Shown here: positions 2,426 through 18,939 of the stretch, one piece after another
How the letters are laid out: every line of letters starts with the position of its first letter
How positions within the stretch are numbered: position 1 is the first letter of the stretch
Sequence record: SRR2962707_2090
Direction: 5' to 3' (one strand)
DNA: 44,093 nt
Position numbers and translations under genes: made by a program
Notes under the pieces: model-generated
Database searches by the model: none
What the model was told of the DNA's origin: nothing
The model's input: the letters and a program-made list of their open reading frames with translations, nothing else

Positions 2426-2506
2426 TCCCGGCCCTCGAGTGGGGGAGTGGAAAGTGGAGAGCAAAGCACCCTAATGCGATTCGCCACAAGGCACAACCTG
2501 TGTGGA

Positions 2507-2544: not shown

Positions 2545-2592
2545 CTAACGGTATCGCTATTCCGGTGATGCCCCGAACCCGGGAGACTCTCC

Positions 2593-3012
2593 ATGCACGC
2601 CTCTTTGCAGCAGGCCCGGCAGGTCCTGGCCGAGCAAGCCTTCAGCGCCCTGTTGGGGACGGAATTACTGGACTATCAGCGGGGAAAAGCGACTCTGCGC
2701 CTGAAGGTGAAGGACGATCTGCGCCAGCAATACGGCTTCGTCCACGGCGGCGTCCTTAGCTATCTGGCCGATAACGCGCTGGCGTTCGCCGGTGGCACGG
2801 TTCTGGAGCCGCTGGTATTTTCCTCGGAATTCAAGATCAACTACTTGCGCCCCGCCGGCGGCGACACCCTGCTGGCGGAGGCCACGGTGATTCATGCCGG
2901 CCGTAATCAGGCCGTGGTCCGTTGCGACATTTACGATTGCCGTGAGGAGCAGCGTAAACTCTGCGTGGCGGCCCAGGGCACCATCGTCCGCAGTCCGCCG
3001 CCCGCCAGTTGA
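2593..3012 (+). CDS. PaaI-family hotdog thioesterase
   Basis: QQYGFVHGGVLSYLADN and EFKINYLRPA motifs; GGAG SD upstream. Confidence 0.9.
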   Translation: MHASLQQARQVLAEQAFSALLGTELLDYQRGKATLRLKVKDDLRQQYGFVHGGVLSYLADNALAFAGGTVLEPLVFSSEFKINYLRPAGGDTLLAEATVIHAGRNQAVVRCDIYDCREEQRKLCVAAQGTIVRSPPPAS

Positions 3013-3013
3013 G

Positions 3014-3952: not shown

Positions 3953-4075
3953 TCTCCTTGATTGTCATTCGGTCATACTGGGAGAACCATAAATAAAGAG
4001 AATGAATTTATTCATCCTGTTTATCAATTATCCCGGCATACTCCGCTCATCCAATAATCAATAACAGGGAACATC

Positions 4076-5782
4076 ATGACCGGACCGGATCGGCGCACCG
4101 TTCTCAAACAACTGGCCCTGGGGGCGGCCGCGCTGGGCGTCAGCCGTCCCGCCGGCGCCCGCGCACCCTCGCCGGTCCGCGGCGACCGTCCGCTCAACGT
4201 ACTGCTGTTGGTGTCGGATCAGGAACGGTCCTGGATGGATTTGCCGGCGGAGCTGGACCTGCCGGCCCACCGGACCCTGCTCGCCGAGGGGGTGGGTTTC
4301 AATCAGTATCATGTGAACACGTCGCCGTGTTCTCCGTCGCGCTCGGTGATGTACACCGGACAGCACACCATGCGCACCGGCATGACCGCCAACCTGCATG
4401 CGCCGCCCTTTCCCACTCTGAACCCGGATCTGCCCACCGTCGGTCACTTCTTTCAGGAGATGGGTTATCACACCGCCTATAAGGGCAAATGGCACTTATC
4501 GGACATTGAGGACGGTCCGGGTCTGCTCTATGGCAGCTACCCAAGCCGGGACAAGGCTCTGGAGGAATACGGCTTCCACGACTACAACCTCACCGGCGAT
4601 GTGCACGGCTCGGTATGGCAGGGTTATCTGGCCGATCGCATGGTGGCCGGTGAAGCCAGTCACTGGCTGGCGCGGCGCAGTCACCAGTTGGACAAGCCAT
4701 GGATGCTGGCGGTGAATTTCGTCAACCCCCACGACATCATGTTCTTCTCCAGCGGCGCGCGGCAGGAACAGTCGCGGGTCAATCCTGATTTCATGGCGCC
4801 GCTGCGGCCGCCGCCCAACGACCCGGTGTACGAGGCGGATTGGCGTCATATTCCGCTACCGCGCTCCTTCCATCGCGCCAATCTGATCGACAAACCCTGG
4901 TGCCACCGCTCTTACGCCCAGGTGCTCGATGCCATTTATGGCCACATCGATAAACAGGACGAAGCCGCCTGGCGCGCCAATCAAAGCTACTACTTCAACT
5001 GCATTCGTGATGTGTCCCGCCAGGTGGAGCATGTGCTGCAGGCACTCAAGGCCAGCGGCCAGTGGGACAACACCATCATCGTCTATACCGCCGACCACGG
5101 CGAAATGGCGGGCGCCCAGGGACTGCGCCAAAAAGGCCCGCTGATCTACAAGGAAAACAGCCGCGTGCCCCTGATCATCCGCCATCCGGATGTTCAGGGC
5201 GGACGCCGGGTGGACAATCTGGGCAGCACGGTGGATTTGCTGCCCACTCTGGTGGGGCTCGCCAGCGCGGGCAAACACAAGTGCGACACGCCGGGCGTGG
5301 ACCTGAGCCCGGCACTCAACGGCAAAACCACCGAACGAGATGATCGGGGCGTGCTGTTCGCCTATGGCGTGCTGCTTTACACCGATCCGGAAGCGACCCG
5401 GCGGCTGGCCAAGGAGGGGGATGAGATTACGCCCATGGCCATGCTCGCCGACTTTTTCAAGCAACTGCGCCTGGGCCCCGAATTGGGTAATCGGGGTCTG
5501 CATAGGGGGGTGCACGACGGCCGCTATAAGTTCGCACGTTATTTCAGTCCCGACAGCCATCACACGCCGACGGATTGGGAAACGCTGCGAGCGCATAACG
5601 ATCTGGAGTTGTATGACACTCATGCCGATCCGGATGAGCTCAACAATCTCGCGGCCGACCCGGAGAAGGTAAAGCCCCTGCTGATGGCCATGAACGAAAA
5701 GACCAACCAACTGGTGGCCGCCGAGATTGGCAAGGACGAGGGCCAGGAATTCCCTGGTCCGACGTTTCTTTACCGACTTTGA
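4076..5782 (+). CDS. Tat-exported Cys-type (formylglycine) sulfatase
   Basis: DRRTVLK twin-arginine signal; SDQER, CSPSRSVMYTG (CxPxR), GKWHL, NPHD and DHG motifs. Confidence 0.92.
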   Translation: MTGPDRRTVLKQLALGAAALGVSRPAGARAPSPVRGDRPLNVLLLVSDQERSWMDLPAELDLPAHRTLLAEGVGFNQYHVNTSPCSPSRSVMYTGQHTMRTGMTANLHAPPFPTLNPDLPTVGHFFQEMGYHTAYKGKWHLSDIEDGPGLLYGSYPSRDKALEEYGFHDYNLTGDVHGSVWQGYLADRMVAGEASHWLARRSHQLDKPWMLAVNFVNPHDIMFFSSGARQEQSRVNPDFMAPLRPPPNDPVYEADWRHIPLPRSFHRANLIDKPWCHRSYAQVLDAIYGHIDKQDEAAWRANQSYYFNCIRDVSRQVEHVLQALKASGQWDNTIIVYTADHGEMAGAQGLRQKGPLIYKENSRVPLIIRHPDVQGGRRVDNLGSTVDLLPTLVGLASAGKHKCDTPGVDLSPALNGKTTERDDRGVLFAYGVLLYTDPEATRRLAKEGDEITPMAMLADFFKQLRLGPELGNRGLHRGVHDGRYKFARYFSPDSHHTPTDWETLRAHNDLELYDTHADPDELNNLAADPEKVKPLLMAMNEKTNQLVAAEIGKDEGQEFPGPTFLYRL

Positions 5783-5813
5783 CTAAGCGCGCCTCTTGGC
5801 CGCGTTCTTTCAG

Positions 5814-5849
5814 CGGTCTCGTGTGAAACGGCACGAGGCCGTTTTTTTT
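5814..5849 (+). terminator. Intrinsic terminator of sulfatase
   Basis: CGGTCTCGTG/CACGAGGCCG stem followed by T8. Confidence 0.8.
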
Positions 5850-5855
5850 GAAATG

Positions 5856-5882
5856 AGGACCGGGCACCCCCGGTCCTTTTTT
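5856..5882. terminator. Second hairpin terminator at end of TRAP operon
   Basis: AGGACCGGG-cacc-CCCGGTCCT followed by T tract on + strand. Confidence 0.65.
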
Positions 5883-5895: not shown

Positions 5896-7230
5896 TCACA
5901 TCAGGCTGGGCAGGAACAATACGATTTGTGGGAACAGGATCAGCAACAGCACGGTAACGAAGTCCGCCACCAGGAACCAGCTGACCCCTTTGAAGATCTC
6001 ACCGATGGTTACCTCATTGCGCACTACCGCCTTGATGATGAAGCAGTTCAGGCCAATTGGCGGGGAGATCAGCCCTATCTCCAGGTATTTGATCATGATG
6101 ATACCGAACCAGATCAAATTGTAGTCCAGCCCCTTCACGATCGGGATCACGATCGGCAGGGTCAACAACATGATCTCGATGGACCCCATGAAGGTACCCA
6201 GAAAGATATACAGCAAAGTCAGGCTGAGCATGATCACCCAGGAAGGTCCATCAAAGCTGCCGGCCCAGGCGGTCATTTCACCCGCGATGCCGGTAAGCGC
6301 GGTAAAGGACGTAACCATATAGGCGCCGATGATCGCCGCGAACAACATCGACGTGGTCTTCAGGGTTTCGGCGAACGCCTTGGAGGTTTTTTCCTTGGTC
6401 AGCCGGCCACTGATCATGCAGATAAGGAACGCCACCGCCGCACCGATGCCGCCCGCCTCCGAGGGCGTGAAGAACCCGGAATAGAGCCCGGCGACAACCA
6501 ATACGATCAAAAGCAACATGCCGCCGGTTTTATTCAATGCCTTGAACTTCTCCTGCAAGGTGCTCTTTTCAGCGGGAGGGGCCAGAGCCGGATTCAACTT
6601 GGCCCTCACCATGACCATGGCGACATAGACCCCCAGCGACAGCAGTCCGGGTAACACGCCAGCCACGAACAGTGCCGCGATGGACTGCTCGGTGAACACC
6701 GCGTACAAAATGATCAGAATGCTCGGAGGAATCAAAGAGCCCAAGGTTCCCGAGGCCGCCACCACACCGGCGGCCAGCCCCTTCTGATATCCCCGCGCCA
6801 GCATTTCGGGGACAGCCATGCGCCCCATGGCCGCGGCGGTGGCCAGACTGGAACCACTGATCGCCGCGAACAAGGCGCAGCCGATCGAAGAGGCAACCGC
6901 CAGACCTCCGGGAACCCGCCCCAGCCAGAGACGGCTGGCACTGTAGATATCACGGGTGAACCCGGCTTCCGTGGCGATATACCCCATGAGAAGAAACATG
7001 GGAATGGTGGTGAAGGTGTAGTCCGAGGTGCTGGAAAAAGGCAGCTTGCCAAGGAACGAATTGGCGGTTATCACACCCGCCATGATATCAAAGTCATTAC
7101 CACGGGCCGCCGTGACCAGGACCATTCCTGCGTAACCGGCGGTCACCAGAACAATGGCGATCGGAACTCGCAACAGTAACAAGGCGATCATCCCGGCGGT
7201 AACCACGATACCGACAGTTTGCGGATCCAT
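5896..7230 (-). CDS. dctM: TRAP transporter large permease (DctM family)
   Basis: IPMFLLMG, FAAISGSSLATAAAMG, GTLGSLIPPS, TPSEAG and ISPPIGLN motifs. Confidence 0.93.
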   Translation of the reverse strand: MDPQTVGIVVTAGMIALLLLRVPIAIVLVTAGYAGMVLVTAARGNDFDIMAGVITANSFLGKLPFSSTSDYTFTTIPMFLLMGYIATEAGFTRDIYSASRLWLGRVPGGLAVASSIGCALFAAISGSSLATAAAMGRMAVPEMLARGYQKGLAAGVVAASGTLGSLIPPSILIILYAVFTEQSIAALFVAGVLPGLLSLGVYVAMVMVRAKLNPALAPPAEKSTLQEKFKALNKTGGMLLLIVLVVAGLYSGFFTPSEAGGIGAAVAFLICMISGRLTKEKTSKAFAETLKTTSMLFAAIIGAYMVTSFTALTGIAGEMTAWAGSFDGPSWVIMLSLTLLYIFLGTFMGSIEIMLLTLPIVIPIVKGLDYNLIWFGIIMIKYLEIGLISPPIGLNCFIIKAVVRNEVTIGEIFKGVSWFLVADFVTVLLLILFPQIVLFLPSLM

Positions 7231-7253
7231 TCAACGTCTCCAGTATAGTTATT

Positions 7254-7838
7254 CTATTCGGTATTCCGGGAAGTGGACTGCCCGTTGCTATCGGACAATT
7301 CTTCAGTATCACGAATGGCGGCCTCGAACTCGGTTTCCTCATTCGGGCGCATACCCGGCCAGACAAGATAGGTGGCGATGCGCAGGCACCACCAGCCCAA
7401 CCCCAGCGGGATAACAGCCTTGGCCGGCCAGTCACGTAGATTGAACACGCTGTTATAGGCCAGTTCGTCAAATACATAGGATTCGTAGGCGGCCTTGCCG
7501 CTCAGATAGGTCATGGCAACGAACATCAGCAGACCGAGAACCAGTGCCATGGTCACCAGGGTATTTTGTAGCCAGCGAGGAAACAGATCCGTCAAAACGG
7601 TCACTTCCAGATGCGCCCCAATCGACTGCACCCAACTCAGCGGCAGAAACACCAAGGCCACCATCATCATCTCCGCGATCAGCAGATCGTCGGGAAGAGA
7701 GGCATTGAAAAAAGTCCGCCCGATCACGGATGCGAAAGTCACCAGGACCATGATCGCCAACGTAATTTTGGCGATCAGAATCAGAAAAGCGTCAATACGA
7801 TCCATAGATCGATTGACGACACGACCAAAGCTGGACAT
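7254..7838 (-). CDS. dctQ: TRAP transporter small permease (DctQ family)
   Basis: About 4 TM segments, SVIGRTFFN and AHLEVTVL; GGAGGT SD before ATG 7838. Confidence 0.88.
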   Translation of the reverse strand: MSSFGRVVNRSMDRIDAFLILIAKITLAIMVLVTFASVIGRTFFNASLPDDLLIAEMMMVALVFLPLSWVQSIGAHLEVTVLTDLFPRWLQNTLVTMALVLGLLMFVAMTYLSGKAAYESYVFDELAYNSVFNLRDWPAKAVIPLGLGWWCLRIATYLVWPGMRPNEETEFEAAIRDTEELSDSNGQSTSRNTE

Positions 7839-7872
7839 CGCTTCGACCTCCTTTGAATACACAGGCAGGATA

Positions 7873-7893
7873 TGGCGGGCACCAGGCCCGCCA
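7873..7893. other. Intercistronic stem-loop between dctP and dctQ (probable mRNA stabiliser)
   Basis: TGGCGGGC-accag-GCCCGCCA just after the dctP stop, no U tract. Confidence 0.55.
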
Positions 7894-7900
7894 GACAAAG

Positions 7901-8986
7901 TCAGTCCTTATCCCAGGGATATCCGTTTTCCTGGATGTCGAGATCGACCTTACGGATTTCCTTAAGATAGGTGTCGTAGAGCGCCTTGACCGCGGGGTTA
8001 CGTTTGCTGGTCCGTTCCACGTTCTCGTTCTCCGCGCCGGAGACCGCCTTCTCCCAGACCTGGCGCTGCTCTCCAGTAACATCATGGACCTCGACGGGGT
8101 ACTTTGGATCGTTCTTCAGGTCGTTTCGGGCGCTCAGATTATCATCAATATCGCCCTTCGCCAGACGCTCCAGATACTCGTCCTGAAGGTCCGCGATAAC
8201 GGATCTTTGTTCATCGCTCAGGCTGTCATAAACCCGTTTGTTCATGACAATGATATTCATCTGTTGGCCAATATTGGGTAGCACCACATGATCAATCACC
8301 TCATTATGGCGATAGGAGAGCACATTATTCAGATAGCTCTGAGCACCATCGATGGTACCGCGCTCAAGAGCGGTATAGATATCGGGGAAAGTGAGATTGA
8401 CCGGCGTTACATTCCATTTTTCCAGGAGCGCGGCCTTGACCCAGCGTGACGCCAAACGCACCTTGTCACCATTGAAATCTGCCGGCGTCATATAAGGGTG
8501 TCCTTTGCTCAACAGCACACCCGGACCGATGGAAAAATGACCGATATGAACCAGGTTGCTGCGGTCCATCTCTTCCTTCAACTGAGGAAATTTTTCATAC
8601 ATTCTTTGCCATGCAATCATCGCCGCATACTGGTCACCCGGTCCTATGCCAGTGGTGGAAATGTAATGTAGCGGCAACTTGGCCTGAGAATATGCCGGTA
8701 CCACGTACCCCGCATCCGCCACGCCGGCGCTGATGCCGTCCACGGCATCCTTAAGTTTGACCAGGCTGTTCATATAATGGACATTGATCTTCAGCTCTCC
8801 GTTGGTGCGCTTTTCAATTTCATCAGCCCACCATTGCAACGCCCGATTAACGCCCGTATCCGCCGGGGGGGAGGACGTCGAATAAGACAGCGTCCGTGCT
8901 TCCACCATCGAAGCCGTCAGGCACAAGAGCAGACCGGATAACAACACCATGGTGCTCTTCTTGATTCGATTATTAAAACAACTCAT
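7901..8986 (-). CDS. dctP: TRAP substrate-binding protein (DctP family)
   Basis: Signal peptide, EIEKRTNGELKI, DFNGDKVR, DIYTALERGTIDG; GGAG SD before ATG 8986. Confidence 0.9.
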   Translation of the reverse strand: MSCFNNRIKKSTMVLLSGLLLCLTASMVEARTLSYSTSSPPADTGVNRALQWWADEIEKRTNGELKINVHYMNSLVKLKDAVDGISAGVADAGYVVPAYSQAKLPLHYISTTGIGPGDQYAAMIAWQRMYEKFPQLKEEMDRSNLVHIGHFSIGPGVLLSKGHPYMTPADFNGDKVRLASRWVKAALLEKWNVTPVNLTFPDIYTALERGTIDGAQSYLNNVLSYRHNEVIDHVVLPNIGQQMNIIVMNKRVYDSLSDEQRSVIADLQDEYLERLAKGDIDDNLSARNDLKNDPKYPVEVHDVTGEQRQVWEKAVSGAENENVERTSKRNPAVKALYDTYLKEIRKVDLDIQENGYPWDKD

Positions 8987-9042
8987 TTTATTCTCCGGGA
9001 TCTTCTTATTGGCATAAATGAATTCTGGGTTTATCCATACAT

Positions 9043-9810
9043 TCAAAACATGTACTCACCGCCATTTAGATGAATCGCCTGTCCGTTGACGAATCCTGAA
9101 TTCGGACCGCACAGGTAGACACAGGCCTGAGCGATGTCCTCGACCTCGCCCCAGCGCCGTACTGGTATCTCCTGTCGTTTGCGTTCCAGGTCGGTATTCG
9201 GATACTGGCTCCAATCCCGCGTGGTGTTGATCGCACCCGGAACCACCGTGTTGGCGGTCACTCCCGATGGACCAAACTCCCGTGCCAGCGCCTTGGTAAA
9301 ACCATGCATGCCGGCTTTGCAGGCGATATTGTGGGCGCGATTGAGGATGTGGCCGGTGAAGCCGTCATAACCGGAAACGTGAATCAGACGACCCCACCCA
9401 CGCGCCTTCATCGCTGGTAACACGCATCGGTTCAGGTAAAAGACCGCGCTCAGATTGGTATCCAGAACCCGTTTCCAGTCCTCCAGGGAGACGTCCAGAA
9501 ACGGCTGATGAAGCCGGCGCCCCACGTTGGATACGGCGATATCAACATCACCAAAATGGCCTTCGGTGACCTTGACCATGGCCGCCACTGCCTGGGGATC
9601 CGATACGTCGCACAGGTACGGCATGGCCTTCCCGCCGGCCTTCTCCACCTCATCACAAACGGACTCCAGCTTTTCCTGGCTGCTGGCGCCGTTGATGACA
9701 ACCCGGGCGCCCTGTGCCGCCAGGGCCAGAGCAATGGCACGACCGATGTTCTGTCCGGAGCCGGTAATCAATGCCACCTTATCTTGCAATGCTGGGCCAA
9801 TATCGCTCAT
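9043..9810 (-). CDS. Atypical short-chain dehydrogenase/reductase (catalytic Tyr replaced by Asn)
   Basis: TGSGQNIG NAD(P)-binding motif; HNIACKAG where YxxxK is expected. Confidence 0.85.
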   Translation of the reverse strand: MSDIGPALQDKVALITGSGQNIGRAIALALAAQGARVVINGASSQEKLESVCDEVEKAGGKAMPYLCDVSDPQAVAAMVKVTEGHFGDVDIAVSNVGRRLHQPFLDVSLEDWKRVLDTNLSAVFYLNRCVLPAMKARGWGRLIHVSGYDGFTGHILNRAHNIACKAGMHGFTKALAREFGPSGVTANTVVPGAINTTRDWSQYPNTDLERKRQEIPVRRWGEVEDIAQACVYLCGPNSGFVNGQAIHLNGGEYMF

Positions 9811-10676
9811 CAGCTATCCCCCTTCCTTGTTTCCAGAGCATGGGCGAAAGCCACGACTCGACGGGCTTGCTCCGCATGCAGATTTTCAATCATCCGGCCA
9901 TTCAGCACCGCAACGCCCTTGCCTTCCGCCAATGTCTTTTCCCAGGCCACGACAACTTCCTTTGCCTCGGACACCGCCCCGAGGTCCGGGCCGAATATGG
10001 CATTGGCGGGGCCAACCTGGGTCGGGTGTATCAGTGTCTTGCCGTCAAATCCCAGATCGCGCCCTTGGCGACAGACTTTCTCCAGCGCATCAAGATCCTT
10101 CAGATCCAGCGTTACGCCGTCCAACGCGTCGCAACCGTAACGGCGCGCGGCCGCCACGGTTCTGGACAGGGAGTACAGCAATGGAAGTCTTTCGGGGTGG
10201 TCGGTGATCCGAAACTCCTTGATCAGATCGGAGGTTCCCATTACCAGAACATCCACGCCCTCCACAGCGGCGATGGTGTCTACATTAGCGATGCCCGCGG
10301 GCGTTTCGATCATCACCCATAAGCACGGACCACCGGCACCAATGCGCTTGAGACACCGTTGCGCCATGGACGCATCTTCCACTTTGGGCACCAGAATGGC
10401 GTCCGGACAGGCCTTGGCCGCCGCCACGATATCGGCTTCGTGCCAGGGCGTACCCTCACCGTTGACACGAATCACTACCTCGCGGTAGCCGTAATCACGT
10501 TGTGCCACGCGCTCACAAACAAGGCCCCTGGCCTCCTCTTTCCTGTCCGGGGCGACCGCGTCTTCCAGATCAAGGATGACCGCGTCCACATCGAGAGTGC
10601 CCGCCTTTTCCATCGCACGCTGATTGATACCAGGCATGTACAGCACAGAGCGTCTTGGGCGAATGACCGGATTCAT
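9810..10676 (-). CDS. CitE-family protein, Mcl2-like ((3S)-malyl-CoA thioesterase-like)
   Basis: RSVLYMPG, DLEDAV, MGTSDL, QGRDLGFDGKTLIHP, GRMIENLH resemble Rhodobacter Mcl2 as recalled. Confidence 0.8.
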   Translation of the reverse strand: MNPVIRPRRSVLYMPGINQRAMEKAGTLDVDAVILDLEDAVAPDRKEEARGLVCERVAQRDYGYREVVIRVNGEGTPWHEADIVAAAKACPDAILVPKVEDASMAQRCLKRIGAGGPCLWVMIETPAGIANVDTIAAVEGVDVLVMGTSDLIKEFRITDHPERLPLLYSLSRTVAAARRYGCDALDGVTLDLKDLDALEKVCRQGRDLGFDGKTLIHPTQVGPANAIFGPDLGAVSEAKEVVVAWEKTLAEGKGVAVLNGRMIENLHAEQARRVVAFAHALETRKGDS

Positions 10677-10698
10677 GAGAACTCCTCTTTATTTCAGA

Positions 10699-11595
10699 TC
10701 ACAGACCGATCAGATCCGCTTTACGAATAGTGTTCTGGAGAATCCGGATTGACGCCGCGTCCACCATGTCGCCATCCACCGCCACCGCGCCAAGCCCCTG
10801 AGCCTCTGCTTCGGTATAGGCGGCGGCAAGCTTGCGCGCGCGATCTACACTCTCCTGGCTTGGAGAGTATTCGTCGTTGGCGATTTCGATCTGGCTGGGA
10901 TGAATGGCCCATTTTCCGGAAGCACCGAGAATACGGGAGCGCTTGCACTCTTCCCGATATCCTTCAGGGTTCTTGATCGCCGCATAGGGTCCATCGACCA
11001 TATCGATGCCAGCGGCGCGAGCGGCGATGATCACTTTGTTGCGAGCGTAGTGCCAGATGTCACCGGGGTAGCCGTCGCCGCTGCCGATGGCACGGGTATC
11101 CACACCCTGAGAAGCGGAATAATCACCAGGCCCGAAAATCAACGCTTCCAGACGAGGCGATGCAGTGGCGATTTCTTCAGCATTGATCATCGCTTCCACT
11201 TCTTCGATAAGCACTTCCAGGGCAATGCGTTTTTTCAAGCCCAGGCGCTCTTCAAGCTGGGTCAGCAACACATCCACCCACCACACGTCACGGGCCGCCT
11301 TCGCTTTCGGTATGATGATCAGATCCAGGTTCTCACCGGCCTGCTCCACCACATCAATGATGTCGCGGTGGGCATAGTGGGTTTCCAGGTTATTGATCCG
11401 GACCGCGCGGGTCTTCTTGCCCCAATCCAACGTGTTCAAGGCCTTGATCACGTTCTGACGCGCCGTGTCCTTCTCGGAAGGCGCCACCGAGTCTTCCAGA
11501 TCCAGAAACACCAGGTCGGCATCGCTGGCGGCCGCTTTGGTCATCATCTTCTCGCTACTTCCCGGCGTGGAGAGTTCGGAACGACGTAGACGCAT
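10699..11595 (-). CDS. CitE-family CoA-ester lyase, Mcl1-like (malyl-CoA/beta-methylmalyl-CoA lyase-like)
   Basis: DLEDSVAP, LDWGKK..VRIN, SPRLEAL, DIWHYAR, VDGPY, GKWAIHP resemble Mcl1 as recalled. Confidence 0.82.
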   Translation of the reverse strand: MRLRRSELSTPGSSEKMMTKAAASDADLVFLDLEDSVAPSEKDTARQNVIKALNTLDWGKKTRAVRINNLETHYAHRDIIDVVEQAGENLDLIIIPKAKAARDVWWVDVLLTQLEERLGLKKRIALEVLIEEVEAMINAEEIATASPRLEALIFGPGDYSASQGVDTRAIGSGDGYPGDIWHYARNKVIIAARAAGIDMVDGPYAAIKNPEGYREECKRSRILGASGKWAIHPSQIEIANDEYSPSQESVDRARKLAAAYTEAEAQGLGAVAVDGDMVDAASIRILQNTIRKADLIGL

Positions 11596-11599
11596 TGGT

Positions 11600-12847
11600 T
11601 TACTCCTTTACAAAATTAGTGATGATGTTCATTTCGGAGAGTTTCTTGATCTCTTCCGCGTTATATCCAAGCTCATTGAGAATCGAACCGGTGTGTTCAC
11701 CCAGCAACGGGGCACGACGGGCCCCGGCCGTGGGAGTGCCTCCCAACCGAATCGGGCTGGCGGCAAAAACGCCGGTATGGTCTGAGCCGGGGTGTTTGAG
11801 TTTAAGAAACATTTCCCGGCAGCCAATGTGCGGATCATTGAAGATGTCTTCCGCGGTGTTGATCGGCCCGGCGGGCACATAGCCGCCAAGCGCTTGCATG
11901 ATTTCCTGCTTGGTGCGCGAGCCGCACCACTCGGACAGAACCGCTCTTACCGCTTCCGCGTTTTCCACGCGCATTGCATTCGTGCAGTAATCCGGGTTCG
12001 CCGCCATATCCGGCCGATCGATGATCCGGCATAGCTCCCGCCATAGGTTGTCCCGGGGAGCGGCGACGGTGACCCACCCGTCCAGAGCTTTGAAGTTGTC
12101 GAAGGGACACAGCAGAGGATGCGTGGTTCCCTGGGGCCGAGGTATCTCGCTGGTATAGCTGTATTGATAGACAATACGTTCACACAGCGAGAGGATGCTG
12201 TCGTACATGGCCACATCGACAAACTGGCCTTCCCCGGTACGCTCGGCGTGATGCAAGGCGGACACGATGCCAAAGGCGGTTTGCACGGCGGGAAAGATAT
12301 CCCCCACTCCAGGTCCGATCTTGATCGGGCTGTCCTTGTCAGGCCCGGTGATGCCCATCAAGCCGCCCATGGCCTGCGCAACCACATCATAGGCCGGCCA
12401 GTAGGTGTACGGACTTTCGCCACTACGGGGATCGCCGAACCCACGAATGCACGCATAAACCAGCTTCGGATTGACCTCCTTGAGCATTTCATAGCTCAGG
12501 CCAAGGCGATCCATGACCCCTACTCTGAAGTTTTCCAGCAGGATGTCCGCTTTCCGTACCAACCCGAGAAGAATCTCCTTGCCTTCTTCCGTCTTCAAAT
12601 CCAGTGCAATGCTGGCCTTGTTTCGATTGACGCTGTGGAAATAACCGCCATAGTGCCGTTCCCCATCGTCATCGAAGTGAGGCCCCTGTCGGCGCGTCTG
12701 GTCGCCGCCGACAGGTTCCACCTTGATCACCTCCGCCCCCATATCGCTCAGCATCATCGAGCAATAGGGCCCGGCCAGCATCTGGCTGAGATCGACGACG
12801 GTAACGCCCTTCAATGGGCCACTCCCATCCCGCCTCCAATCGCTCAT
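11600..12847 (-). CDS. Family III (CaiB/BaiF) CoA-transferase, Mct-like
   Basis: DLSQMLAGP, YGGYFHSVNRNK, IRGFGDPRSGE, AYDVVAQA (catalytic Asp), GPGVGDIF, SLCERIVYQYSYT. Confidence 0.88.
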   Translation of the reverse strand: MSDWRRDGSGPLKGVTVVDLSQMLAGPYCSMMLSDMGAEVIKVEPVGGDQTRRQGPHFDDDGERHYGGYFHSVNRNKASIALDLKTEEGKEILLGLVRKADILLENFRVGVMDRLGLSYEMLKEVNPKLVYACIRGFGDPRSGESPYTYWPAYDVVAQAMGGLMGITGPDKDSPIKIGPGVGDIFPAVQTAFGIVSALHHAERTGEGQFVDVAMYDSILSLCERIVYQYSYTSEIPRPQGTTHPLLCPFDNFKALDGWVTVAAPRDNLWRELCRIIDRPDMAANPDYCTNAMRVENAEAVRAVLSEWCGSRTKQEIMQALGGYVPAGPINTAEDIFNDPHIGCREMFLKLKHPGSDHTGVFAASPIRLGGTPTAGARRAPLLGEHTGSILNELGYNAEEIKKLSEMNIITNFVKE

Positions 12848-13329
12848 TTGTCCCCCCAGTAGGAGCGACGCTTGATCAACGCCTTGCGCTCGCCGGAGAA
12901 CACCTGGATATCGTCCTGATTGAAGCCAAGGTGGCGGAAGGTAACGATTCCCGCATCCTCACGCTCAGCATCTTCGACCTTCAGGACTTCGGTATAGGCA
13001 TAAAGCGTATGGCCATGAAGCACCGGGCTGGAGAAGCGGATAGCATTCAGCCCCAACTCCTCGATCACCTGCTCGCCGGTGTCCTCGGAAGCAAGTCCGA
13101 TGATGAACGAGGCCGTTATGCCGCCGAAGTTAATACGATGCTTGAATGGTGACTCCTGCATCCTGTGTTCGTTGAAATGACCTTGAGCCGTATTCATCAC
13201 CTGCAGGGTGATCAACACGTTGTCCATTTCCGTAATGGTTCTGCCACGGGCGTGTTTGTAGACATCTCCGACCGTGAAGTCCTCGAAGTAGTTGTCTTTT
13301 CCGGTCAGTTCAGCAATGGGGTAACTCAT
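12844..13329 (-). CDS. MaoC-like hotdog dehydratase resembling the C-terminal half of mesaconyl-CoA hydratase
   Basis: YFEDFTVGD, RTITEMDN..T....NTAQGHFN, RINFGG; 4-nt overlaps with both neighbours. Confidence 0.85.
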   Translation of the reverse strand: MSYPIAELTGKDNYFEDFTVGDVYKHARGRTITEMDNVLITLQVMNTAQGHFNEHRMQESPFKHRINFGGITASFIIGLASEDTGEQVIEELGLNAIRFSSPVLHGHTLYAYTEVLKVEDAEREDAGIVTFRHLGFNQDDIQVFSGERKALIKRRSYWGDK

Positions 13330-14537
13330 TGTTTTACCGCTCCCAGAAGACGATCGGAGATGATCCGTTTCTGAATCTCGGAGGTGCCCTCAAAGATCTT
13401 GGTCAGGCGGGCATCCCGCCAATAGCGCTCCACCGCGAAATCCGTGGTGTAACCGGCGCCACCGTGAATCTGCAGTGCTTCACTGGTAACGCGCTCGGAC
13501 ATCTCCGCGGCGAACAGTTTCACCATGGAAGATTCCTTGTCGCAGCGCCGGCCGCTGTCGATCTCGGTGGCAACGTGATACATCAACTGGCGCGCGGCCT
13601 CGATCTGCGCCGCCATGTCCGCGATCTTGAAACGGATCGCCTGAAAATGACCGATCGGCCGCCCGAACTGCTCCCGCTCATGCACATAGCGGATGGAATC
13701 TTCCAAGGCGCCACGGGCCAGCCCGATGGAACGGGCCGCGGTGTGGGCTCTGGCCACCTCGAGTTTTCCCATGGTGGTGTAGAAGGCGTTGCCCTCCTCA
13801 CCGATCAGCGCCTCGGCCGGTACCCGGCAGTTGTCGAAAGACAGCTCAAAGGTCTTCCAGCCTCGATAGCCGATCTTGTTGACCGGGCTGCCCTGAACAC
13901 CTGGCGGCAGAGTCCCCCGCTCCTTCGGAATATGAAAGGCGCTGATCCCCTTATGCCGGGCCTTGGGGTCGACCTCGGGCGTAGTGCGAGCCATGACGGT
14001 CAGGTAATCCGCGCCATCGGCAAAGGTGCACCACATTTTTGAGCCGTTGATCACCCATTCATCTCCTTCACGACGGGCGCGGGTGGAGAGGTTTGCGACG
14101 TCCGACCCTGCGTTCGGTTCCGATAGAGCAAAGGCGTTCAGATAGTCGCCGGAGGCGATCTTCGGGAGATACTTCCGTTTTTGCTCTTCAGAGAAACCGG
14201 CTCCGGCCGCGTTACCGCGTGCCATGATGCTGGCCACGCTCATCCAGCCCCGGGCCAGTTCTTCCGCCACCAGACAGTACTCGAAACAACCCAGGCCCAG
14301 GCCGCCGTACTCCTCGGGAATCATGATGCCGAAGAAACCCATTTGAGCCATCTGGTCGCGCAGGCTCATGGGGATTTCCCCGTTGATCGGGTCAAGCTTG
14401 TTGGCCACCGGCAGCACTTCCTTCATGGAGAAGTTTCGCGCCGTTTCCTGAATCATCAACCGCTCTTCCGTAAAGTAGTCCGGCACATCATCTCTTGGCG
14501 GAATCGGCGGATTACTTCTACTGCTGTCTTTGGTCAT
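13326..14537 (-). CDS. Acyl-CoA dehydrogenase, methylsuccinyl-CoA dehydrogenase-like core
   Basis: ALSEPNAGSD, GYRGWKTFELSFD, ARAHTAARSIG, GRRCD, QIHGGAGY, IFEGTSEIQ (catalytic Glu). Confidence 0.9.
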   Translation of the reverse strand: MTKDSSRSNPPIPPRDDVPDYFTEERLMIQETARNFSMKEVLPVANKLDPINGEIPMSLRDQMAQMGFFGIMIPEEYGGLGLGCFEYCLVAEELARGWMSVASIMARGNAAGAGFSEEQKRKYLPKIASGDYLNAFALSEPNAGSDVANLSTRARREGDEWVINGSKMWCTFADGADYLTVMARTTPEVDPKARHKGISAFHIPKERGTLPPGVQGSPVNKIGYRGWKTFELSFDNCRVPAEALIGEEGNAFYTTMGKLEVARAHTAARSIGLARGALEDSIRYVHEREQFGRPIGHFQAIRFKIADMAAQIEAARQLMYHVATEIDSGRRCDKESSMVKLFAAEMSERVTSEALQIHGGAGYTTDFAVERYWRDARLTKIFEGTSEIQKRIISDRLLGAVKQ

Positions 14538-14540
14538 TAC

Positions 14541-15041
14541 TTATTTCCTGTTCAGCTTTTTGGCGATCAGATTGGTTCGATCAAAGTCAATGACTTTTTC
14601 ATTCCTTTGGTTGAATCCCTCGGTGTGCCAGGTGGCGATACCCATGCCGGGACGACTGTCGGAATCACGCAGATCAATCACCTCACTGCGGGCGGTCAGA
14701 GTGTCATCGGGATAAACCGCTTTCAGGAAGTTGAGGTTCTCCACGCCCAGAAAAGCCCCGCCGGATTCGCTCAAATCCTCGACGGACAAACCGAAAACCG
14801 TCAGGAACACCATCATCGGATTTACCACGATGGTGGAATGCCCGTGGGCTTTTGCGTATTCCTTATTGAAGTACAGAGGATTGAAGTTGAGCGTCATGGT
14901 GGAAAACTGAACACAATCCGACTCCAGCACGGTGCGGCCCCAGTGATGCTTGAAGACCTGCCCTACTTCCATATCGTCCAGACCATTGCCTTTGGCTCTG
15001 AACTTCGCCCCTTCCAGAAGGCGCTTGACATCGCTCATCAT
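14541..15041 (-). CDS. MaoC-like hotdog dehydratase resembling the N-terminal half of mesaconyl-CoA hydratase
   Basis: GRTV, VFGLSVEDLS...AFLG, VYPDDTLTARSEVI, GFNQRNE; GAGG SD; start may be 15038. Confidence 0.85.
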   Translation of the reverse strand: MMSDVKRLLEGAKFRAKGNGLDDMEVGQVFKHHWGRTVLESDCVQFSTMTLNFNPLYFNKEYAKAHGHSTIVVNPMMVFLTVFGLSVEDLSESGGAFLGVENLNFLKAVYPDDTLTARSEVIDLRDSDSRPGMGIATWHTEGFNQRNEKVIDFDRTNLIAKKLNRK

Positions 15042-15054
15042 TATTCCTCGTTGC

Positions 15055-16440
15055 TCATTGGCCTTTGCTGATCAGAGAGATCAAAGAACTCAAGTTTTCT
15101 TCTTTCTCCAACGCCGCCACCTTGGCAATAATCGCCTCCGCCGACGTCTCGCCCAGGACGGGCACCACCAGACTTCTGAATTTCTCCGCCAGCCGTTCCC
15201 ATTGCCGTGGCAATGCCTCGACCGGGGTCGGCTGCGATACATCCCCTTTACCCTGGCACACGCGCCCATCACGGCACTTCGCCTCCACCACGGAGCTGTA
15301 TCGATTGGGAAGATTGGTAACCGGAACGACAGTGACCTTGTCACGTAATCCACAAAGCCTTGCGTCCCTGACTTTTTCATCGGTAAACGAGGTAACGTCA
15401 GTGGGCTCCCCGGCGAGCGCCAGGGCGGTGGTGAATCTCAGGCTGAATTTGCCTTCCAGACCAGAACCTGGGGTGTGAATATTGCACACTTTCAGATGCG
15501 ACTCTGGCACCAGAACGCGCACTTCTTCTATCTCCTTATCGGCGATGGAATACTCGGATTGAAGCAGCTGGGCCGCTTCGATAGTCGCATGTGTCAGATA
15601 ACAAGCGGCGTGGTACTTGAACAGGACCTCACCAATGGAAAATCGATTCCGAAGAGCATCGAAAGCGGCCTCATTGAAACCGCTCGATTGCGTTTCGATA
15701 AATCCCTGGCTGGCTTCCAGCGCCTTGGGATTGGCGGTAAATCCTTTTGCGGCCAGGGAGGCGGCCAGCCAGCCGTTGGCGGCGGCCTTACCAGCATGAA
15801 AAGGCTTCGTCATGGTGCCAAACATGCTCTTGAGACCCGCGGCCTGCGCGGCGGCCAGACCAAAAGCATGCCCCCACTGTGGCCGGGGAAGGCTCATCAA
15901 ATGGGCGCAAGCCGCCGTGGCGCCAAAAGTGCCAACGGTTCCGGTGGCATGGAAACCAACCCCGTAATGATCGGGTGAGACGGCAGTGCCAACCAGACAT
16001 TCGGCTTCAAAACCGGCGACGAAAGCCGTGATGAAATCGAGACCAGAACGAGTGTCGATTTCAGCCAAGGCCAGGATCGCGGAGAACACCGGAACGGAAG
16101 GATGCCCACCCATCGCTGAAACCACATCGTCGTAGTCCAGAGCATGGGAGGCGGCACCGTTAATCAAGGCTGCCCAGAACGTGGAGGCACGCTGTTCGAC
16201 GCCAATCAGGGCACAGTTTTCAGCATAACCCTCTTCCAATGCCTGTTGGCGAAGCAGTACAACCAGTTCCTCACGAGAACCGGCGATGGTGACACCAAGC
16301 CAGTCAAGAAAGCAGTGTTTGGCGACTATCCGTTTGTCTTCCGGAATACTGTCCGCTCGCAACGACGATATAAACTCAATAATGTCGTCGGTGACCGGGC
16401 GGGCTACTTCACGCTTGTCATTCTTTTCAAACCCAGGCAT
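15055..16440 (-). CDS. MmgE/PrpD-family protein (IDS-epimerase/IRG1-like subgroup)
   Basis: DWLGVTIAG, ASHALDYDD, GHPS, GFHATG, KPFHAG, FKYHAACYLTH, EGKFS; GGAGG SD before ATG 16440. Confidence 0.88.
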   Translation of the reverse strand: MPGFEKNDKREVARPVTDDIIEFISSLRADSIPEDKRIVAKHCFLDWLGVTIAGSREELVVLLRQQALEEGYAENCALIGVEQRASTFWAALINGAASHALDYDDVVSAMGGHPSVPVFSAILALAEIDTRSGLDFITAFVAGFEAECLVGTAVSPDHYGVGFHATGTVGTFGATAACAHLMSLPRPQWGHAFGLAAAQAAGLKSMFGTMTKPFHAGKAAANGWLAASLAAKGFTANPKALEASQGFIETQSSGFNEAAFDALRNRFSIGEVLFKYHAACYLTHATIEAAQLLQSEYSIADKEIEEVRVLVPESHLKVCNIHTPGSGLEGKFSLRFTTALALAGEPTDVTSFTDEKVRDARLCGLRDKVTVVPVTNLPNRYSSVVEAKCRDGRVCQGKGDVSQPTPVEALPRQWERLAEKFRSLVVPVLGETSAEAIIAKVAALEKEENLSSLISLISKGQ

Positions 16441-16577
16441 TGCCTTCCTCCATACTAGCGGGTACAACCTAGAGCCAGCTGAGCCCACCTCCCGATGGAT
16501 CATTCGCCGTTCCGGCGGAACTCATTGGATGGGAATATCATTATGGAGCGGGGCTATAGAGACGCCATTTGCTAAAC

Positions 16578-16603
16578 GTTAATGCCAAATTAACCAGCGG
16601 TTA
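16578..16603 (-). promoter_or_regulatory. LysR-type operator, copy 1 (left operon)
   Basis: Minus strand TAACCGCTGGTTAATTTGGCATTAAC; contains a T-N11-A dyad; CATAAT -10 candidate at 16545-16540. Confidence 0.75.
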
Positions 16604-16653: not shown

Positions 16654-17601
16654 ATGAAACGAAGGCATCTACCCCCCTTGAATCCAGTAAGAAGTTTCGA
16701 GGCGGCGGCTCGTAACGGCAGCTTCACCAAGGCTGCCGAGGAGCTGCATGTCACCACCGTCGCGGTCAGTCGGCAGGTCGCCGTCCTTGAGCAATATTTT
16801 GGAGTGCCTTTATTTGAAAGACGCCATCAGAGCCTGAAATTGACTCGTGAAGGCAGGGAGTTTCTTCCTTATGCCACCGCCGCATTCGACCAGCTTTATC
16901 AGGGTGCTCAGGGTTTACGCTCACCGGAGTCCCGCCCCATCGTGGTTTGTGCCTACGCATCAATCGCCATTCACTGGCTGATTCCACGTCTATGTCGTTT
17001 TCGCGAAGCCTTCCCCGAGATCCATATCGACTTGACGACCGCCGCCAAACCCGAGGAGTTCGATTACGATTCCATCGACGTTGCCATCCAATATCTGAAA
17101 GTGTCGTCTCAGGACCTGAGTAGTCAGACGTTGCTTCCCGATATTATCCAACCCGCCTGCAGCCCCGGACTTTTGCAGGGCGATTACCCCATTCCCCCCG
17201 AAGAAAATCTGCCCCGCCATACTTTTTTACACTCAAAGTACCGTAAACAGGACTGGGGTGAATGGCTGAAGACGGCCAAGCTTTCCCATCTTCAACCGGC
17301 TCATGAACTCACCTTCAAAGGCTCCAGTCTTGCCTATCAGGCGGCAGCGGAGGGCGTGGGCGTTGCCGTCGTTCAGCGGCCGCTGGTGGATGACGAGTTC
17401 CGCGCCGGCAGACTGGTCGCCCCGTTTGCTCTGGCCCACCAGCGCTCCGATGGCATTGTCATGGCTGGACGCAAGCGAAACTTCCAACACCCTCAGGTAA
17501 GCGCCTTTTGCGACTGGTTGGAACAGGAGGCCAGAGACTCTGTAAAACGAATGGATATTGAATATTCACGGAAGGACAGCAGTTTATTGACGGTGGCCTG
17601 A
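16654..17601 (+). CDS. LysR-family regulator, GcvA-like
   Basis: MKRRHLPPLNPVRSFEAAARNGSFTKAAEELHVT, WLIPRLCRF. Confidence 0.93.
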   Translation: MKRRHLPPLNPVRSFEAAARNGSFTKAAEELHVTTVAVSRQVAVLEQYFGVPLFERRHQSLKLTREGREFLPYATAAFDQLYQGAQGLRSPESRPIVVCAYASIAIHWLIPRLCRFREAFPEIHIDLTTAAKPEEFDYDSIDVAIQYLKVSSQDLSSQTLLPDIIQPACSPGLLQGDYPIPPEENLPRHTFLHSKYRKQDWGEWLKTAKLSHLQPAHELTFKGSSLAYQAAAEGVGVAVVQRPLVDDEFRAGRLVAPFALAHQRSDGIVMAGRKRNFQHPQVSAFCDWLEQEARDSVKRMDIEYSRKDSSLLTVA

Positions 17602-17790: not shown

Positions 17791-18939
17791 ATGCATTCGT
17801 TTCGTTTTGATCCAGTCAACCTCCCGCCGGAAGTGGACCGGCTTCGCCAGGAGGTCAGAGAGTTCCTGGCCGACCAGCTTTCCTCTGGTCTGATCACACC
17901 GCACCGTAATTCCTGGGGCAGTTTCGACCCTGACTTTTCGCGTGAGTGCGGCCGTCGCGGCTATATCGGTATGCGCTGGCCCAAGCAGTATGGCGGCCAT
18001 GAGCGCACCGCGCTCGAGCGTTATGTGGTCACCGAGGAAATGCTCGCCGCCGGCGCGCCGGTTGGCGCCCACTGGGTCGCGGACCGGCAAAGCGGCAACA
18101 ACATTCTGGCCCATGGTAGTGAGCAAGCGCGGCAGGCCATTCTGCCGGAAATCACCGCCGGCCGGTGTTTCTTTTCCATCGGTATGAGTGAACCCAATTC
18201 CGGCTCGGATCTGGCCGCCGCTTCCACCCGCGCCAAACGCGTGGAAGGAGGCTGGCGCATTACCGGCAGCAAGGTCTGGACCAGCGGCGCTCACCGTAAT
18301 CACTACCTCATCGCCCTGGTGCGCACCGCCCCCCGCGGTGAGGACCGTCACGCCGGCCTCACTCAGTTCATCGTCGATATGAACACGGACGGCGTCACCA
18401 CCCGCCCGATCTATAACCTTTACGGCGGGCATGACTTCAACGAAGTGATATTCGACGAGGCTTTCGTTCCCGATCACATGATGATCGGCAAGGAAGGCGA
18501 CGGCTGGCGCATGGTCACCGGCGAGCTGGCGTTCGAACGCAGCGGCCCGGACCGTTTTCTGAGCACTTTTCAATTGCTGCGCCAGCTCATCGACAAACTT
18601 CAGGAAAATGCCGATAAGCATGAACGTATCGCACTGGGACGTCTGCTCTCGCATTTGACCACGCTTCGAATCATGTCGCTCTCCGTCGCCGGCATGCTGG
18701 AACGCGGTGACTCGCCCAACCTGGAGGCTGCGCTGGTCAAGGATATCGGTACGGCGTTCGAGCAAGAGATTCCGGAGATCGCCAGACTGCTGGTTGATGC
18801 CGAGCCGTCTCTCAGCCACGGACAGCCGTTCAATGAATCGCTGGCCCGCGCCATTCTCACCGCGCCCTCCTTCACCATCCGGGGCGGTACCCGGGAAATT
18901 CTGCGCGGCATCATTGCAAAAGGATTGGGTTTACGATGA
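17791..18939 (+). CDS. Acyl-CoA dehydrogenase, large/catalytic subunit of heteromeric type (PimC/ChsE2-like)
   Basis: WPKQYGG, GMSEPNSGSDLA, GSKVWTS, FNEVIFD, LAFERSG, TIRGGTREILR. Confidence 0.88.
   Translation: MHSFRFDPVNLPPEVDRLRQEVREFLADQLSSGLITPHRNSWGSFDPDFSRECGRRGYIGMRWPKQYGGHERTALERYVVTEEMLAAGAPVGAHWVADRQSGNNILAHGSEQARQAILPEITAGRCFFSIGMSEPNSGSDLAAASTRAKRVEGGWRITGSKVWTSGAHRNHYLIALVRTAPRGEDRHAGLTQFIVDMNTDGVTTRPIYNLYGGHDFNEVIFDEAFVPDHMMIGKEGDGWRMVTGELAFERSGPDRFLSTFQLLRQLIDKLQENADKHERIALGRLLSHLTTLRIMSLSVAGMLERGDSPNLEAALVKDIGTAFEQEIPEIARLLVDAEPSLSHGQPFNESLARAILTAPSFTIRGGTREILRGIIAKGLGLR

Follow-up and report, generated by a model that had tools for sequence, protein, structure and literature searches.

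What does an operon degrade, and by which chemistry, when it combines a CoA-transferase, an acyl-CoA dehydrogenase (ACAD), a pair of MaoC proteins and a pair of CitE proteins with the genes of a transporter? This question is raised by a stretch of 44,093 nucleotides (nt) from sequence record SRR2962707_2090, the whole of which is referred to here as the window. On its minus strand an earlier note, made from the sequence letters, had described eleven genes in the order MmgE/PrpD-MaoC-ACAD-MaoC-CoA-transferase-CitE-CitE-SDR-dctPQM (SDR, short-chain dehydrogenase/reductase), and the open reading frame (ORF) map and the Pfam domains gave the same order at positions 5896-16440/16503. Adjacent genes were spaced at -4 to +23 nt; since neighbors overlap by at most 4 nt or sit at most 23 nt apart, a single transcript fits all eleven.

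Methylsuccinate, mesaconate and itaconate are plentiful as metabolites of fungi, of the gut and of the immune system, and they serve as platform chemicals too. To our knowledge, the only bacterial route for the breakdown of these acids to have been characterized (2014-2025) is the one via C4-CoA esters and citramalyl-CoA. For the window operon we favor, with slightly better than even confidence, the breakdown of methylsuccinate/mesaconate via a C1-CoA ester and beta-methylmalyl-CoA. The earlier note had proposed this pathway, and both the family placement and the conserved residues of the enzymes support it, with the substrate and the regiochemistry standing as predictions.

Enzymes of the six-gene core

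Placement of the enzymes rests on scores against hidden Markov models and on phmmer scores against the PDB. The family III CoA-transferase (11600-12847, PF02515) was best matched by the NCBIfam model NF041294, succinyl-CoA:mesaconate CoA-transferase (Mct), with 482.1 bits and an E value of 1E-144 over positions 3-380 of 381. An Ict-type control taken from the nearest genome compared (G001) scored 195.7 bits on the same model, so that the likeness to Mct pointed out in the earlier note was borne out. The second-best model was that of succinate-glutarate CoA-transferase at 330 bits. The characterized haloarchaeal Mct is reported to form only the C1 ester, to accept methylsuccinate besides mesaconate (kcat/Km of 12.4 versus 9.8) and to have weak activity with glutarate (PMC5592240). 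By analogy, we propose that the window transferase is a C1-specific succinyl-CoA:methylsuccinate/mesaconate CoA-transferase.

The two MaoC proteins, MaoC1 (14541-15041, 166 aa) and MaoC2 (12844-13329, 161 aa), matched the two halves of mesaconyl-CoA hydratase (Mch). MaoC1 matched PF19315 (MC_hydratase) with 110.5 bits over profile positions 9-167 of 353, NF041625 with 115 bits over positions 10-169 of 358, and the N-terminal halves of the solved proteins 4e3e (residues 7-150) and 8hgn (residues 6-148). MaoC2 matched PF19315 with 97.3 bits over profile positions 223-353 of 353 and the C-terminal halves of 8hgn (residues 188-314) and 4e3e (residues 190-314). The PDB entry 8hgn is named 'beta-methylmalyl-CoA dehydratase'. 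Taken singly, each protein exceeded the gathering score of PF19315 over the half that it matches, whereas the Ich-type hydratase of G001 gave no PF19315 match. The identification of the pair with Mch, made in the earlier note, thus held in Pfam, NCBIfam and PDB alike, with N and C halves both covered. In Mch, a single chain carries both (R)-hydratase hot-dog domains; here they are separate proteins, with the ACAD gene lying between their genes. The classical hydratase-2 motif was not found in MaoC1 or MaoC2 by simple patterns.

A complex of MaoC1 with MaoC2 was predicted with an ipSAE of 0.94 (best control, 0.00), contacts that agreed to 100% over three runs and a partner pLDDT of 94. The ipSAE mark of the complex model is reached by 58 of 80 solved complexes and by 2 of 110 mismatched pairs. 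Because hot-dog dimers and fused double hot-dogs are among the solved structures, this score shows likeness and is not proof of binding. We propose that a MaoC1/MaoC2 heterodimer would form a split mesaconyl-CoA hydratase. One-domain Mch relatives in bacteria, and bacterial relatives of Mct, have previously been remarked upon, their role being left unexplained in that report (Borjian et al. 2017, PMC5592240).

For the ACAD (13326-14537, 403 aa, four ACAD Pfam domains), residues were aligned to those of the methylsuccinyl-CoA dehydrogenase (Mcd) structure 6es9, the numbering of which fits that of PdMCD in PMC5798300 (Trp476, Glu535). The terminal-carboxylate arginine cluster of Mcd (Arg252, Arg376 and Arg421, with Ser248 and Thr418) is present in the window ACAD as R107, R225 and R269, with S103 and T266, and E383 is the equivalent of Glu535. 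The equivalents of Arg252, Ser248, Thr418, Arg421 and Glu535 were kept in all 18 syntenic ACAD orthologues. In PdMCD, Arg252 is reported to be essential and Arg421 to bind the substrate carboxylate, replacing the carboxylate-binding arginine of glutaryl-CoA dehydrogenase (PMC5798300). As read from the alignment, the generic ACADs 4iv6, 5ol2 and 5lnx lack an Arg252 equivalent, and in a C4-type Mcd orthologue Arg252, Arg421 and Glu535 are replaced by Gln, Glu and Pro. We propose from these residues that the ACAD is a methylsuccinyl-C1-CoA (2-substituted succinyl-CoA) dehydrogenase.

CitE1 (10699-11595), placed by phmmer against the PDB, matched 5ugr with 290.7 bits and 4l9y with 261.7 bits, both over the full length and both named malyl-CoA (beta-methylmalyl-CoA) lyase, compared with 78-143 bits on citramalyl-CoA-type lyases (4l7z, 143; CLYBL, 122; 3qll, 103; 8khl, 78). 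Relative to 5ugr, a loop of ~16 residues is missing. The Mcl-type identity that had been suggested for the first CitE was supported insofar as Mcl-type lyases are nearest by PDB score, and we propose that CitE1 is a beta-methylmalyl-CoA/malyl-CoA lyase, predicted to give glyoxylate and propionyl-CoA.

The MmgE/PrpD gene spans 15055-16503 in its longest ORF (482 aa; PF03972 and PF19305); its likely true start is the ATG at 16440 (461 aa), which has GGAGGA upstream and agrees with the operon end given in the earlier note. The protein has H120, D123, H134, Y180, H185, K233 and K296 (482-aa numbering) at the positions of the Msi/IDS-epimerase residues, which in Pseudomonas Msi are reported as His88, Glu91, His102, Tyr148, His152, Lys202 and Lys266 (PMC12290011). 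These columns were invariant in 25 of 25 aligned sequences, save that D123 is Glu in the Msi-type row; Asp at this position, instead of the Glu of Msi, is also found in IDS epimerase. The conserved tyrosine is the second base in both epimerases. Overall, the PrpD-like protein shows 33% identity to the Msi-type protein of G001 and stands about as far from this type as from those members of the family that have been solved ('B. subtilis IRG1', 157 bits; IDS epimerase, 149; cis-aconitate decarboxylase, 99). Substrates of the PrpD family are reported to have a succinate backbone in common (PMC12290011). The residues lead us to propose a putative (S)/(R) epimerase of methylsuccinate or of another 2-substituted succinate.

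Distribution of the core and its accessory genes

With the PrpD-like protein as query, 80 loci were returned from genome contigs, and MaoC1, ACAD, MaoC2, the CoA-transferase and CitE1 were counted as its partners. All five stood beside the PrpD homologue in 13 loci, two to four of them in another 13 (some on cut contigs) and one in 2. That the six genes at the head of the operon reappear as a set in 13 of the 80 loci, and in other phyla, takes their grouping beyond chance. By record title, the complete modules belong to Chloroflexota (Anaerolineaceae, Dehalococcoidia), Alpha- and Gammaproteobacteria, Caulobacteraceae and a metagenome-assembled genome (MAG) of Margulisiibacteriota, and partial or rearranged sets were seen in Tepidiformales MAGs, Rhodococcus opacus and a Streptomyces. 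Gene order was that of the window in 8 of the 13 complete modules, the other 5 being rearranged or having a divergent PrpD gene. Apparent ACAD-MaoC2 and MaoC1-MaoC2 fusions at three loci (L027, L035 and L086) were rejected as artefacts that arise when the first start codon is taken; by tblastn, the matches fall in different frames.

Genes beyond the six were not conserved among the loci, which argues for a self-contained module of six; the genes for CitE2, the SDR and the TRAP transporter are accessory to this core. The only other complete copy of the operon was found in an Alkalilimnicola MAG (locus L020), where CitE2 was 73%, the TRAP genes 52-71% and the divergent LysR regulator 59% identical to those of the window and no SDR was present at that place.

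In a tree of 81 PrpD homologues, those linked to the module all lay far from the Msi-type protein. Many of the homologues with no partner nearby adjoin other family III CoA-transferases (30-39% identity), so the pairing of epimerase and CoA-transferase recurs and the PrpD-like protein is not exclusive to the module. At nine such loci (L041, L042, L045, L050, L053, L057, L069, L070 and L072) the PrpD homologue is 44-50% identical and other family III CoA-transferases (32-39%) lie near, with an ACAD and an SDR also close by in L053, L057, L069 and L070; these nine look like further uncharacterized epimerase-plus-CoA-transferase clusters.

CitE2 (9810-10676, PF03328) stood beside CitE1 in just one of the 80 loci, that of Alkalilimnicola, and a metagenome scan with CitE2 gave no further operon copy, only ~50%-identical relatives in another context. 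Its homologues bear generic names only, and it is distant from all solved proteins (5ugr, 131 bits; CLYBL, 118 bits). Human CLYBL is reported to work better on malyl-CoA, as a thioesterase, than on citramalyl-CoA, as a lyase, and to protect methylmalonyl-CoA mutase (bioRxiv 10.1101/2024.09.25.614871). CitE2 is roughly as similar to CLYBL as it is to any other solved protein, and its ~50%-identical relatives adjoin the mutase that CLYBL is reported to protect; the likeness is nevertheless distant, and the CitE2 gene sits in a catabolic operon. By this analogy, CitE2 may be an accessory, CLYBL-like malyl-CoA thioesterase and/or citramalyl-CoA lyase. Among eight longer metagenome loci with the ~50%-identical homologues, an AMP-forming ligase was present in 6 and methylmalonyl-CoA mutase in 6, followed in some by the propionyl-CoA carboxylase subunits and MeaB. 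The row of AMP-forming ligase, CitE-like protein, methylmalonyl-CoA mutase, propionyl-CoA carboxylase beta/alpha and MeaB (L101 8499-17721, L102-L105 and L107) may, again by analogy, be a bacterial counterpart of the protection that CLYBL is reported to give to the B12-dependent mutase.

The SDR (FabG-like; 9043-9810, PF13561 and PF00106) reached no NCBIfam cut-off and has no orthologue at the same place in the Alkalilimnicola operon. It is followed by the adjacent genes for the P, Q and M components of the tripartite ATP-independent periplasmic (TRAP) transporter: DctP (7901-9046, PF03480), DctQ (7254-7898, PF04290) and DctM (5896-7230, PF06808). DctP likely starts further downstream, at Met21 or Met33, and its N terminus looks like a signal peptide.

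The proposed route and its alternatives

In the route that we favor, the TRAP system would import the acid, and the PrpD-like protein would interconvert (R)- and (S)-methylsuccinate, making both available to a stereospecific enzyme downstream. The Mct-like transferase would shift CoA from succinyl-CoA to the carboxyl beside the methyl-bearing carbon. The ACAD would oxidize methylsuccinyl-C1-CoA to mesaconyl-C1-CoA, the point at which mesaconate would enter directly after CoA transfer, and the MaoC1/MaoC2 heterodimer would hydrate this ester to beta-methylmalyl-CoA, which CitE1 would cleave to glyoxylate and propionyl-CoA. Propionyl-CoA would be taken by the methylcitrate cycle of the host and glyoxylate by malate synthase G. 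CitE2 may open a further outlet for glyoxylate, along the lines of the Mcl1/Mcl2 pair proposed in the earlier note: CitE1 would condense glyoxylate with acetyl-CoA to malyl-CoA, and CitE2 would hydrolyze malyl-CoA to malate; alternatively, CitE2 may cleave citramalyl-CoA arising from any C4 ester. Both products could be consumed, since malate synthase G (1170 bits) is present in G001, as is a match to type II citrate/2-methylcitrate synthase that lies over the cut-off (517 bits).

The lower ethylmalonyl-CoA pathway of Rhodobacter uses an Mcl1/Mcl2 pair. From methylsuccinyl-C1-CoA onward, the window operon would follow the same reaction order as this pathway in Rhodobacter/Paracoccus (PMC5798300); its ACAD shares Arg252, Arg421 and Glu535, and its CitE1 scores 262-291 bits on solved Mcl-type lyases. 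The window differs in having no Ccr/Ecm upstream, in an ACAD without the N-terminal extension and without the Ala285/Phe287 pocket, and in a substrate that would arrive as the free acid via a CoA-transferase. With the lower methylaspartate cycle of Haloarcula (PMC5592240), the operon has in common a transferase that best matches the Mct model and the same predicted series from mesaconate through mesaconyl-C1-CoA and beta-methylmalyl-CoA to glyoxylate and propionyl-CoA. The Haloarcula enzymes serve an anaplerotic cycle, which glutamate mutase and methylaspartate ammonia-lyase supply, whereas the window holds a stand-alone uptake-and-breakdown operon, which adds an ACAD and an epimerase, splits Mch and scores below the haloarchaeal equivalog cut-offs. 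The absence of ccr, ecm, glutamate mutase and methylaspartate lyase from the window, remarked upon in the earlier note, held for the families of these enzymes among the 36 window ORFs scanned with Pfam. In G001, Ccr stayed below its cut-off (best score, 79.7 versus 378.55) and methylaspartate ammonia-lyase was not found, which places the module outside the ethylmalonyl-CoA pathway and the methylaspartate cycle.

The closest known parallel in organization is the ich-mcd-msi-ict-ccl cluster of Pseudomonas/Cupriavidus, which is reported to convert itaconate and both methylsuccinate enantiomers to mesaconyl-C4-CoA, then to (S)-citramalyl-CoA and in the end to acetyl-CoA and pyruvate (Gonner et al. 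2025, PMC12290011). The two systems have five protein families in common (MmgE/PrpD epimerase, ACAD, MaoC-type hydratase, family III CoA-transferase and CitE lyase), as well as a logic in which a branched C5 dicarboxylate is activated by succinyl-CoA, desaturated, hydrated and cleaved. They differ in that the window operon has a hydratase of the Mch family in two pieces and a lyase of the Mcl rather than the Ccl type, the ACAD has the C1-specific Mcd arginines, and the operon adds a second CitE, an SDR and a TRAP transporter. With an Mch-type hydratase, an Mcl-type lyase and the Mcd-C1 arginines, the predicted products are therefore glyoxylate and propionyl-CoA and not acetyl-CoA and pyruvate. 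The parallel with the Pseudomonas itaconate cluster had already been drawn, together with the suggestion of a different route, and it stands: the families are the same and four of the enzymes point to the C1 type.

A direct comparison was possible within G001, of which contig C44 (L007 5269-10754) carries five genes in ich-mcd-msi-ict-ccl order encoding proteins of 283, 387, 450, 427 and 273 aa; the cluster was called canonical by its layout only, through the order of the genes and the sizes of their products. Identity to this canonical-type cluster was 33% for PrpD, 35% for the ACAD, 31% for the CoA-transferase and 30% each for CitE1 and CitE2, and MaoC1 and MaoC2 had no blastp match at an E value of 1E-3. 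The comparison was made as a check on whether the window enzymes group with Ict/Ich/Ccl or with unrelated clades, and with identities of 30-35% and no match for MaoC it left the C1 reading standing. With identities this low, the window operon is a distant paralogous system, and since G001 carries the canonical-type cluster, the lineage may own both routes once the island that bears the operon (described below) is present.

Several findings weigh against the C1 route. No operon enzyme reached an NCBIfam equivalog cut-off, and the CoA-transferase falls short of the curated cut-off of 700 for NF041294, although this is still the best of the 7 families matched. MaoC1 and MaoC2 scored 100 and 103 bits on the RipB/Ich model, about equal to their 115 and 99 bits on the haloarchaeal Mch model, and because haloarchaeal Mch is reported to hydrate the C4 ester as well (PMC5592240), the hydratase leaves the regiochemistry unfixed. 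By PDB score the ACAD is no nearer to Mcd (6es9, 300 bits) than to generic short-chain ACADs (4iv6, 307; 5ol2, 301; 5lnx, 301), and it scored only 217 bits on a second Mcd, 8ciw. It also lacks the N-terminal extension (~170 residues) of Mcd, which is a homodimer, residues 24-398 aligning to 6es9 169-550 only. In place of the pocket of PdMCD for the C2 methyl, formed by Ala285 with the aromatic residue moved to position 287 (Phe287), it has Phe136/Leu138; an Ala-to-Phe exchange in the methyl pocket of RsMCD is reported to give an inactive enzyme (PMC5798300), and among the ACAD orthologues the Ala285 position is F, V or A, six each. The Arg376 equivalent was kept in only 2 of 18 orthologues. 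Of the resemblance to the Mcd core that had been noted for the ACAD, the shared Arg252 and Arg421 thus remain, whereas the score is not above that of generic ACADs and the extension and pocket are missing. DctP scored at most 73 bits on solved TRAP binding proteins and, with none of these close, gives no hint of the ligand. As to distribution, 52 of the 80 PrpD homologues have no partner nearby, and on the PrpD tree the module-linked homologues clustered without forming one clade, the module label changing 12 times, at least 7 of these forced by well-supported branches. Finally, the host context is taken from G001, a relative and not the window's own genome.

Some of these points would suit a reading, tentative and clearly the less probable one, in which the same C1 chemistry and Mcl-type cleavage to glyoxylate and an acyl-CoA act on another 2-substituted succinate: ethyl- or alkylsuccinates, a carboxymethyl-succinate such as tricarballylate (giving succinyl-CoA), or methylsuccinyl-CoA supplied by the neighboring beta-oxidation operon acting on a 3-methyl-branched dicarboxylate. 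The cut-offs left unreached, the variation of the methyl-pocket residue among orthologues and the occurrence of the PrpD subfamily in other CoA-transferase contexts all fit such a substrate, as does the second acyl-CoA operon that adjoins the module in the window and in the Alkalilimnicola MAG. Against it, the characterized enzymes nearest to the transferase and to the lyase show specificity for C5 or C4 compounds, as reported in PMC5592240 for the former and judged from PDB names for the latter, and the remaining 12 complete loci are without the second operon, no match passing 40% identity and 60% coverage.

A divergent form of the known itaconate/methylsuccinate pathway, in which a C4-CoA ester (mesaconyl-C4-CoA/itaconyl-CoA) would yield (S)-citramalyl-CoA and then acetyl-CoA and pyruvate with one CitE as citramalyl-CoA lyase, appears improbable. 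It could claim the five families found in the Pseudomonas/Cupriavidus cluster (PMC12290011), the RipB/Ich scores of the MaoC proteins, the reported activity of haloarchaeal Mch on mesaconyl-C4-CoA (PMC5592240) and the position of CitE2, for which CLYBL, a citramalyl-CoA lyase, is about as near a match as any. It is opposed by the low identity of the window proteins to the canonical-type G001 cluster, in which the hydratase has no match, by a transferase far nearer to Mct than the Ict-type control is, by ACAD arginines that are those of C1-specific Mcd and missing from the C4-type Mcd orthologue, and by CitE1, the conserved lyase, being nearest to glyoxylate-forming lyases; 12 of the 13 complete modules have no CitE2, and G001 already has a canonical-type cluster. 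We regard as highly unlikely an unrelated short dicarboxylate pathway, such as that of glutarate/2-methylglutarate via glutaconyl-CoA and 3-hydroxyglutaryl-CoA with the SDR acting on an aldehyde product: the second-best transferase model, the 270.6 bits of the ACAD on the model of non-decarboxylating glutaryl-CoA dehydrogenase and the reported weak glutarate activity of Mct (PMC5592240) agree with it, but the succinate backbone reported for PrpD-family substrates (PMC12290011), the closeness of CitE1 to glyoxylate-releasing lyases and the position of the SDR outside the conserved module do not.

The reactions of the favored C1 route are all known from central cycles, and a parallel C4 cluster is known; their use as a breakdown route is what would be new. 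Neither the module nor a catabolic C1 route was found described in the full-text literature, of which few subscription journals were covered; Supplementary Table 5/Fig. 5 of PMC12290011, on the MmgE/PrpD clades, may already include this one. A 2026 Cupriavidus paper comes nearest, stating that partial flux via the beta-methylmalyl-CoA route 'cannot be ruled out' (PMC13491972). The wider proposition we hold to be evenly balanced: that the six-gene core is a widespread, undescribed second bacterial pathway for methylsuccinate/mesaconate by the C1 route, that bacterial Mct/Mch were the source of the haloarchaeal enzymes, and that the pathway may here be coupled to beta-oxidation, with CitE2 as a thioesterase. 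If true, a second route ending in glyoxylate and propionyl-CoA would alter how these acids are traced in metabolic models of soil, marine and subsurface bacteria; Chloroflexota MAGs are among the carriers of the module. It would also provide a methylsuccinyl-C1-CoA dehydrogenase of compact form and a mesaconyl-CoA hydratase in two subunits, of interest for synthetic CO2-fixation cycles in which these steps are used, and a concrete bacterial origin for the enzymes of the haloarchaeal methylaspartate cycle.

Control region, genomic island and flanking sequence

Divergent from the operon, on the plus strand, lies the gene of a LysR-family regulator (GcvA-like; 16654-17601, PF00126 and PF03466), the product of which scored 282.7 bits on NF008352, slightly below the cut-off of 288. 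Within the 150-nt divergent promoter region, the T-N11-A inverted repeat TAACCGCTGGTTA at 16591-16603 is a candidate LysR site; the repeat and the block after it are conserved in the equivalent intergenic region of the Alkalilimnicola MAG, where the divergent LysR protein is the 59%-identical one mentioned above. The regulator would probably activate the operon on sensing the acid or a CoA ester. Apart from the hairpin described below, a scan for promoters and terminators was uninformative, with 1 promoter-like site compared with 6.2 in shuffles and 13 terminator-like sites compared with 12.0.

Contig C30 of G001 matches the window at 1-5849 and at 27621-40000 with 95-99% identity and joins these two flanks directly, indicating that window positions ~5850-27620 are an insertion of about 21.8 kb relative to G001, which carries the C5 operon and a second acyl-CoA operon. 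The G+C content is 55-58% across 6-18 kb compared with 60-66% in the flanks. Neither direct repeats nor mobility genes were found at the island ends. A GC-rich hairpin of 10 base pairs at 5855-5878 lies just past dctM, exactly at the left edge of the island, and could act as a bidirectional terminator.

Matches to the PrpD-like query at an E value of 1E-60 or lower were found in none of 5 genomes of the same genus and none of 12 of the same family, and with 401 genomes of the order searched, the closest match was 47% identical. The operon would have been acquired on the 21.8-kb island by a marine species that already has the classical C4-CoA/citramalyl-CoA cluster elsewhere. Near-identical operon DNA (at least 97% of sampled words) was present in 18 sequencing runs from about 11 studies; by label these are metagenomes (marine, seawater or biofilm) and coded organisms, and the source sample may be among them. 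Of the 23 runs that matched the operon DNA, none is listed as an RNA run.

The second island operon (plus strand, 17791-26069) encodes a PimC/PimD-like two-subunit ACAD, a crotonase, an NDP-forming acyl-CoA synthetase, an SCPx-type thiolase and a DHA2-type transporter of the major facilitator superfamily, and includes no gene for a 3-hydroxyacyl-CoA dehydrogenase. In the Alkalilimnicola MAG, four of the genes of this operon likewise adjoin the module (55-77% identity), so the two operons may cooperate; as a beta-oxidation operon, it may supply methylsuccinyl-CoA from 3-methyl-branched dicarboxylates. Beyond it lies a porin gene (26160-27344, minus strand).

To the left of the island, a sulfatase Pfam match was found at 4076-5782. 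To its right, an intergenic element at 38226-38315, after the SecDF gene, has at least 30 matches in G001 at 76-100% identity and looks like a dispersed repeat of the repetitive extragenic palindromic (REP) type. At window positions 3002-3016, G001 has an extra ~1.7 kb (C30:51703-53412), and between 3016 and 5849 the window is 95% identical to G001, below the 99% seen elsewhere.

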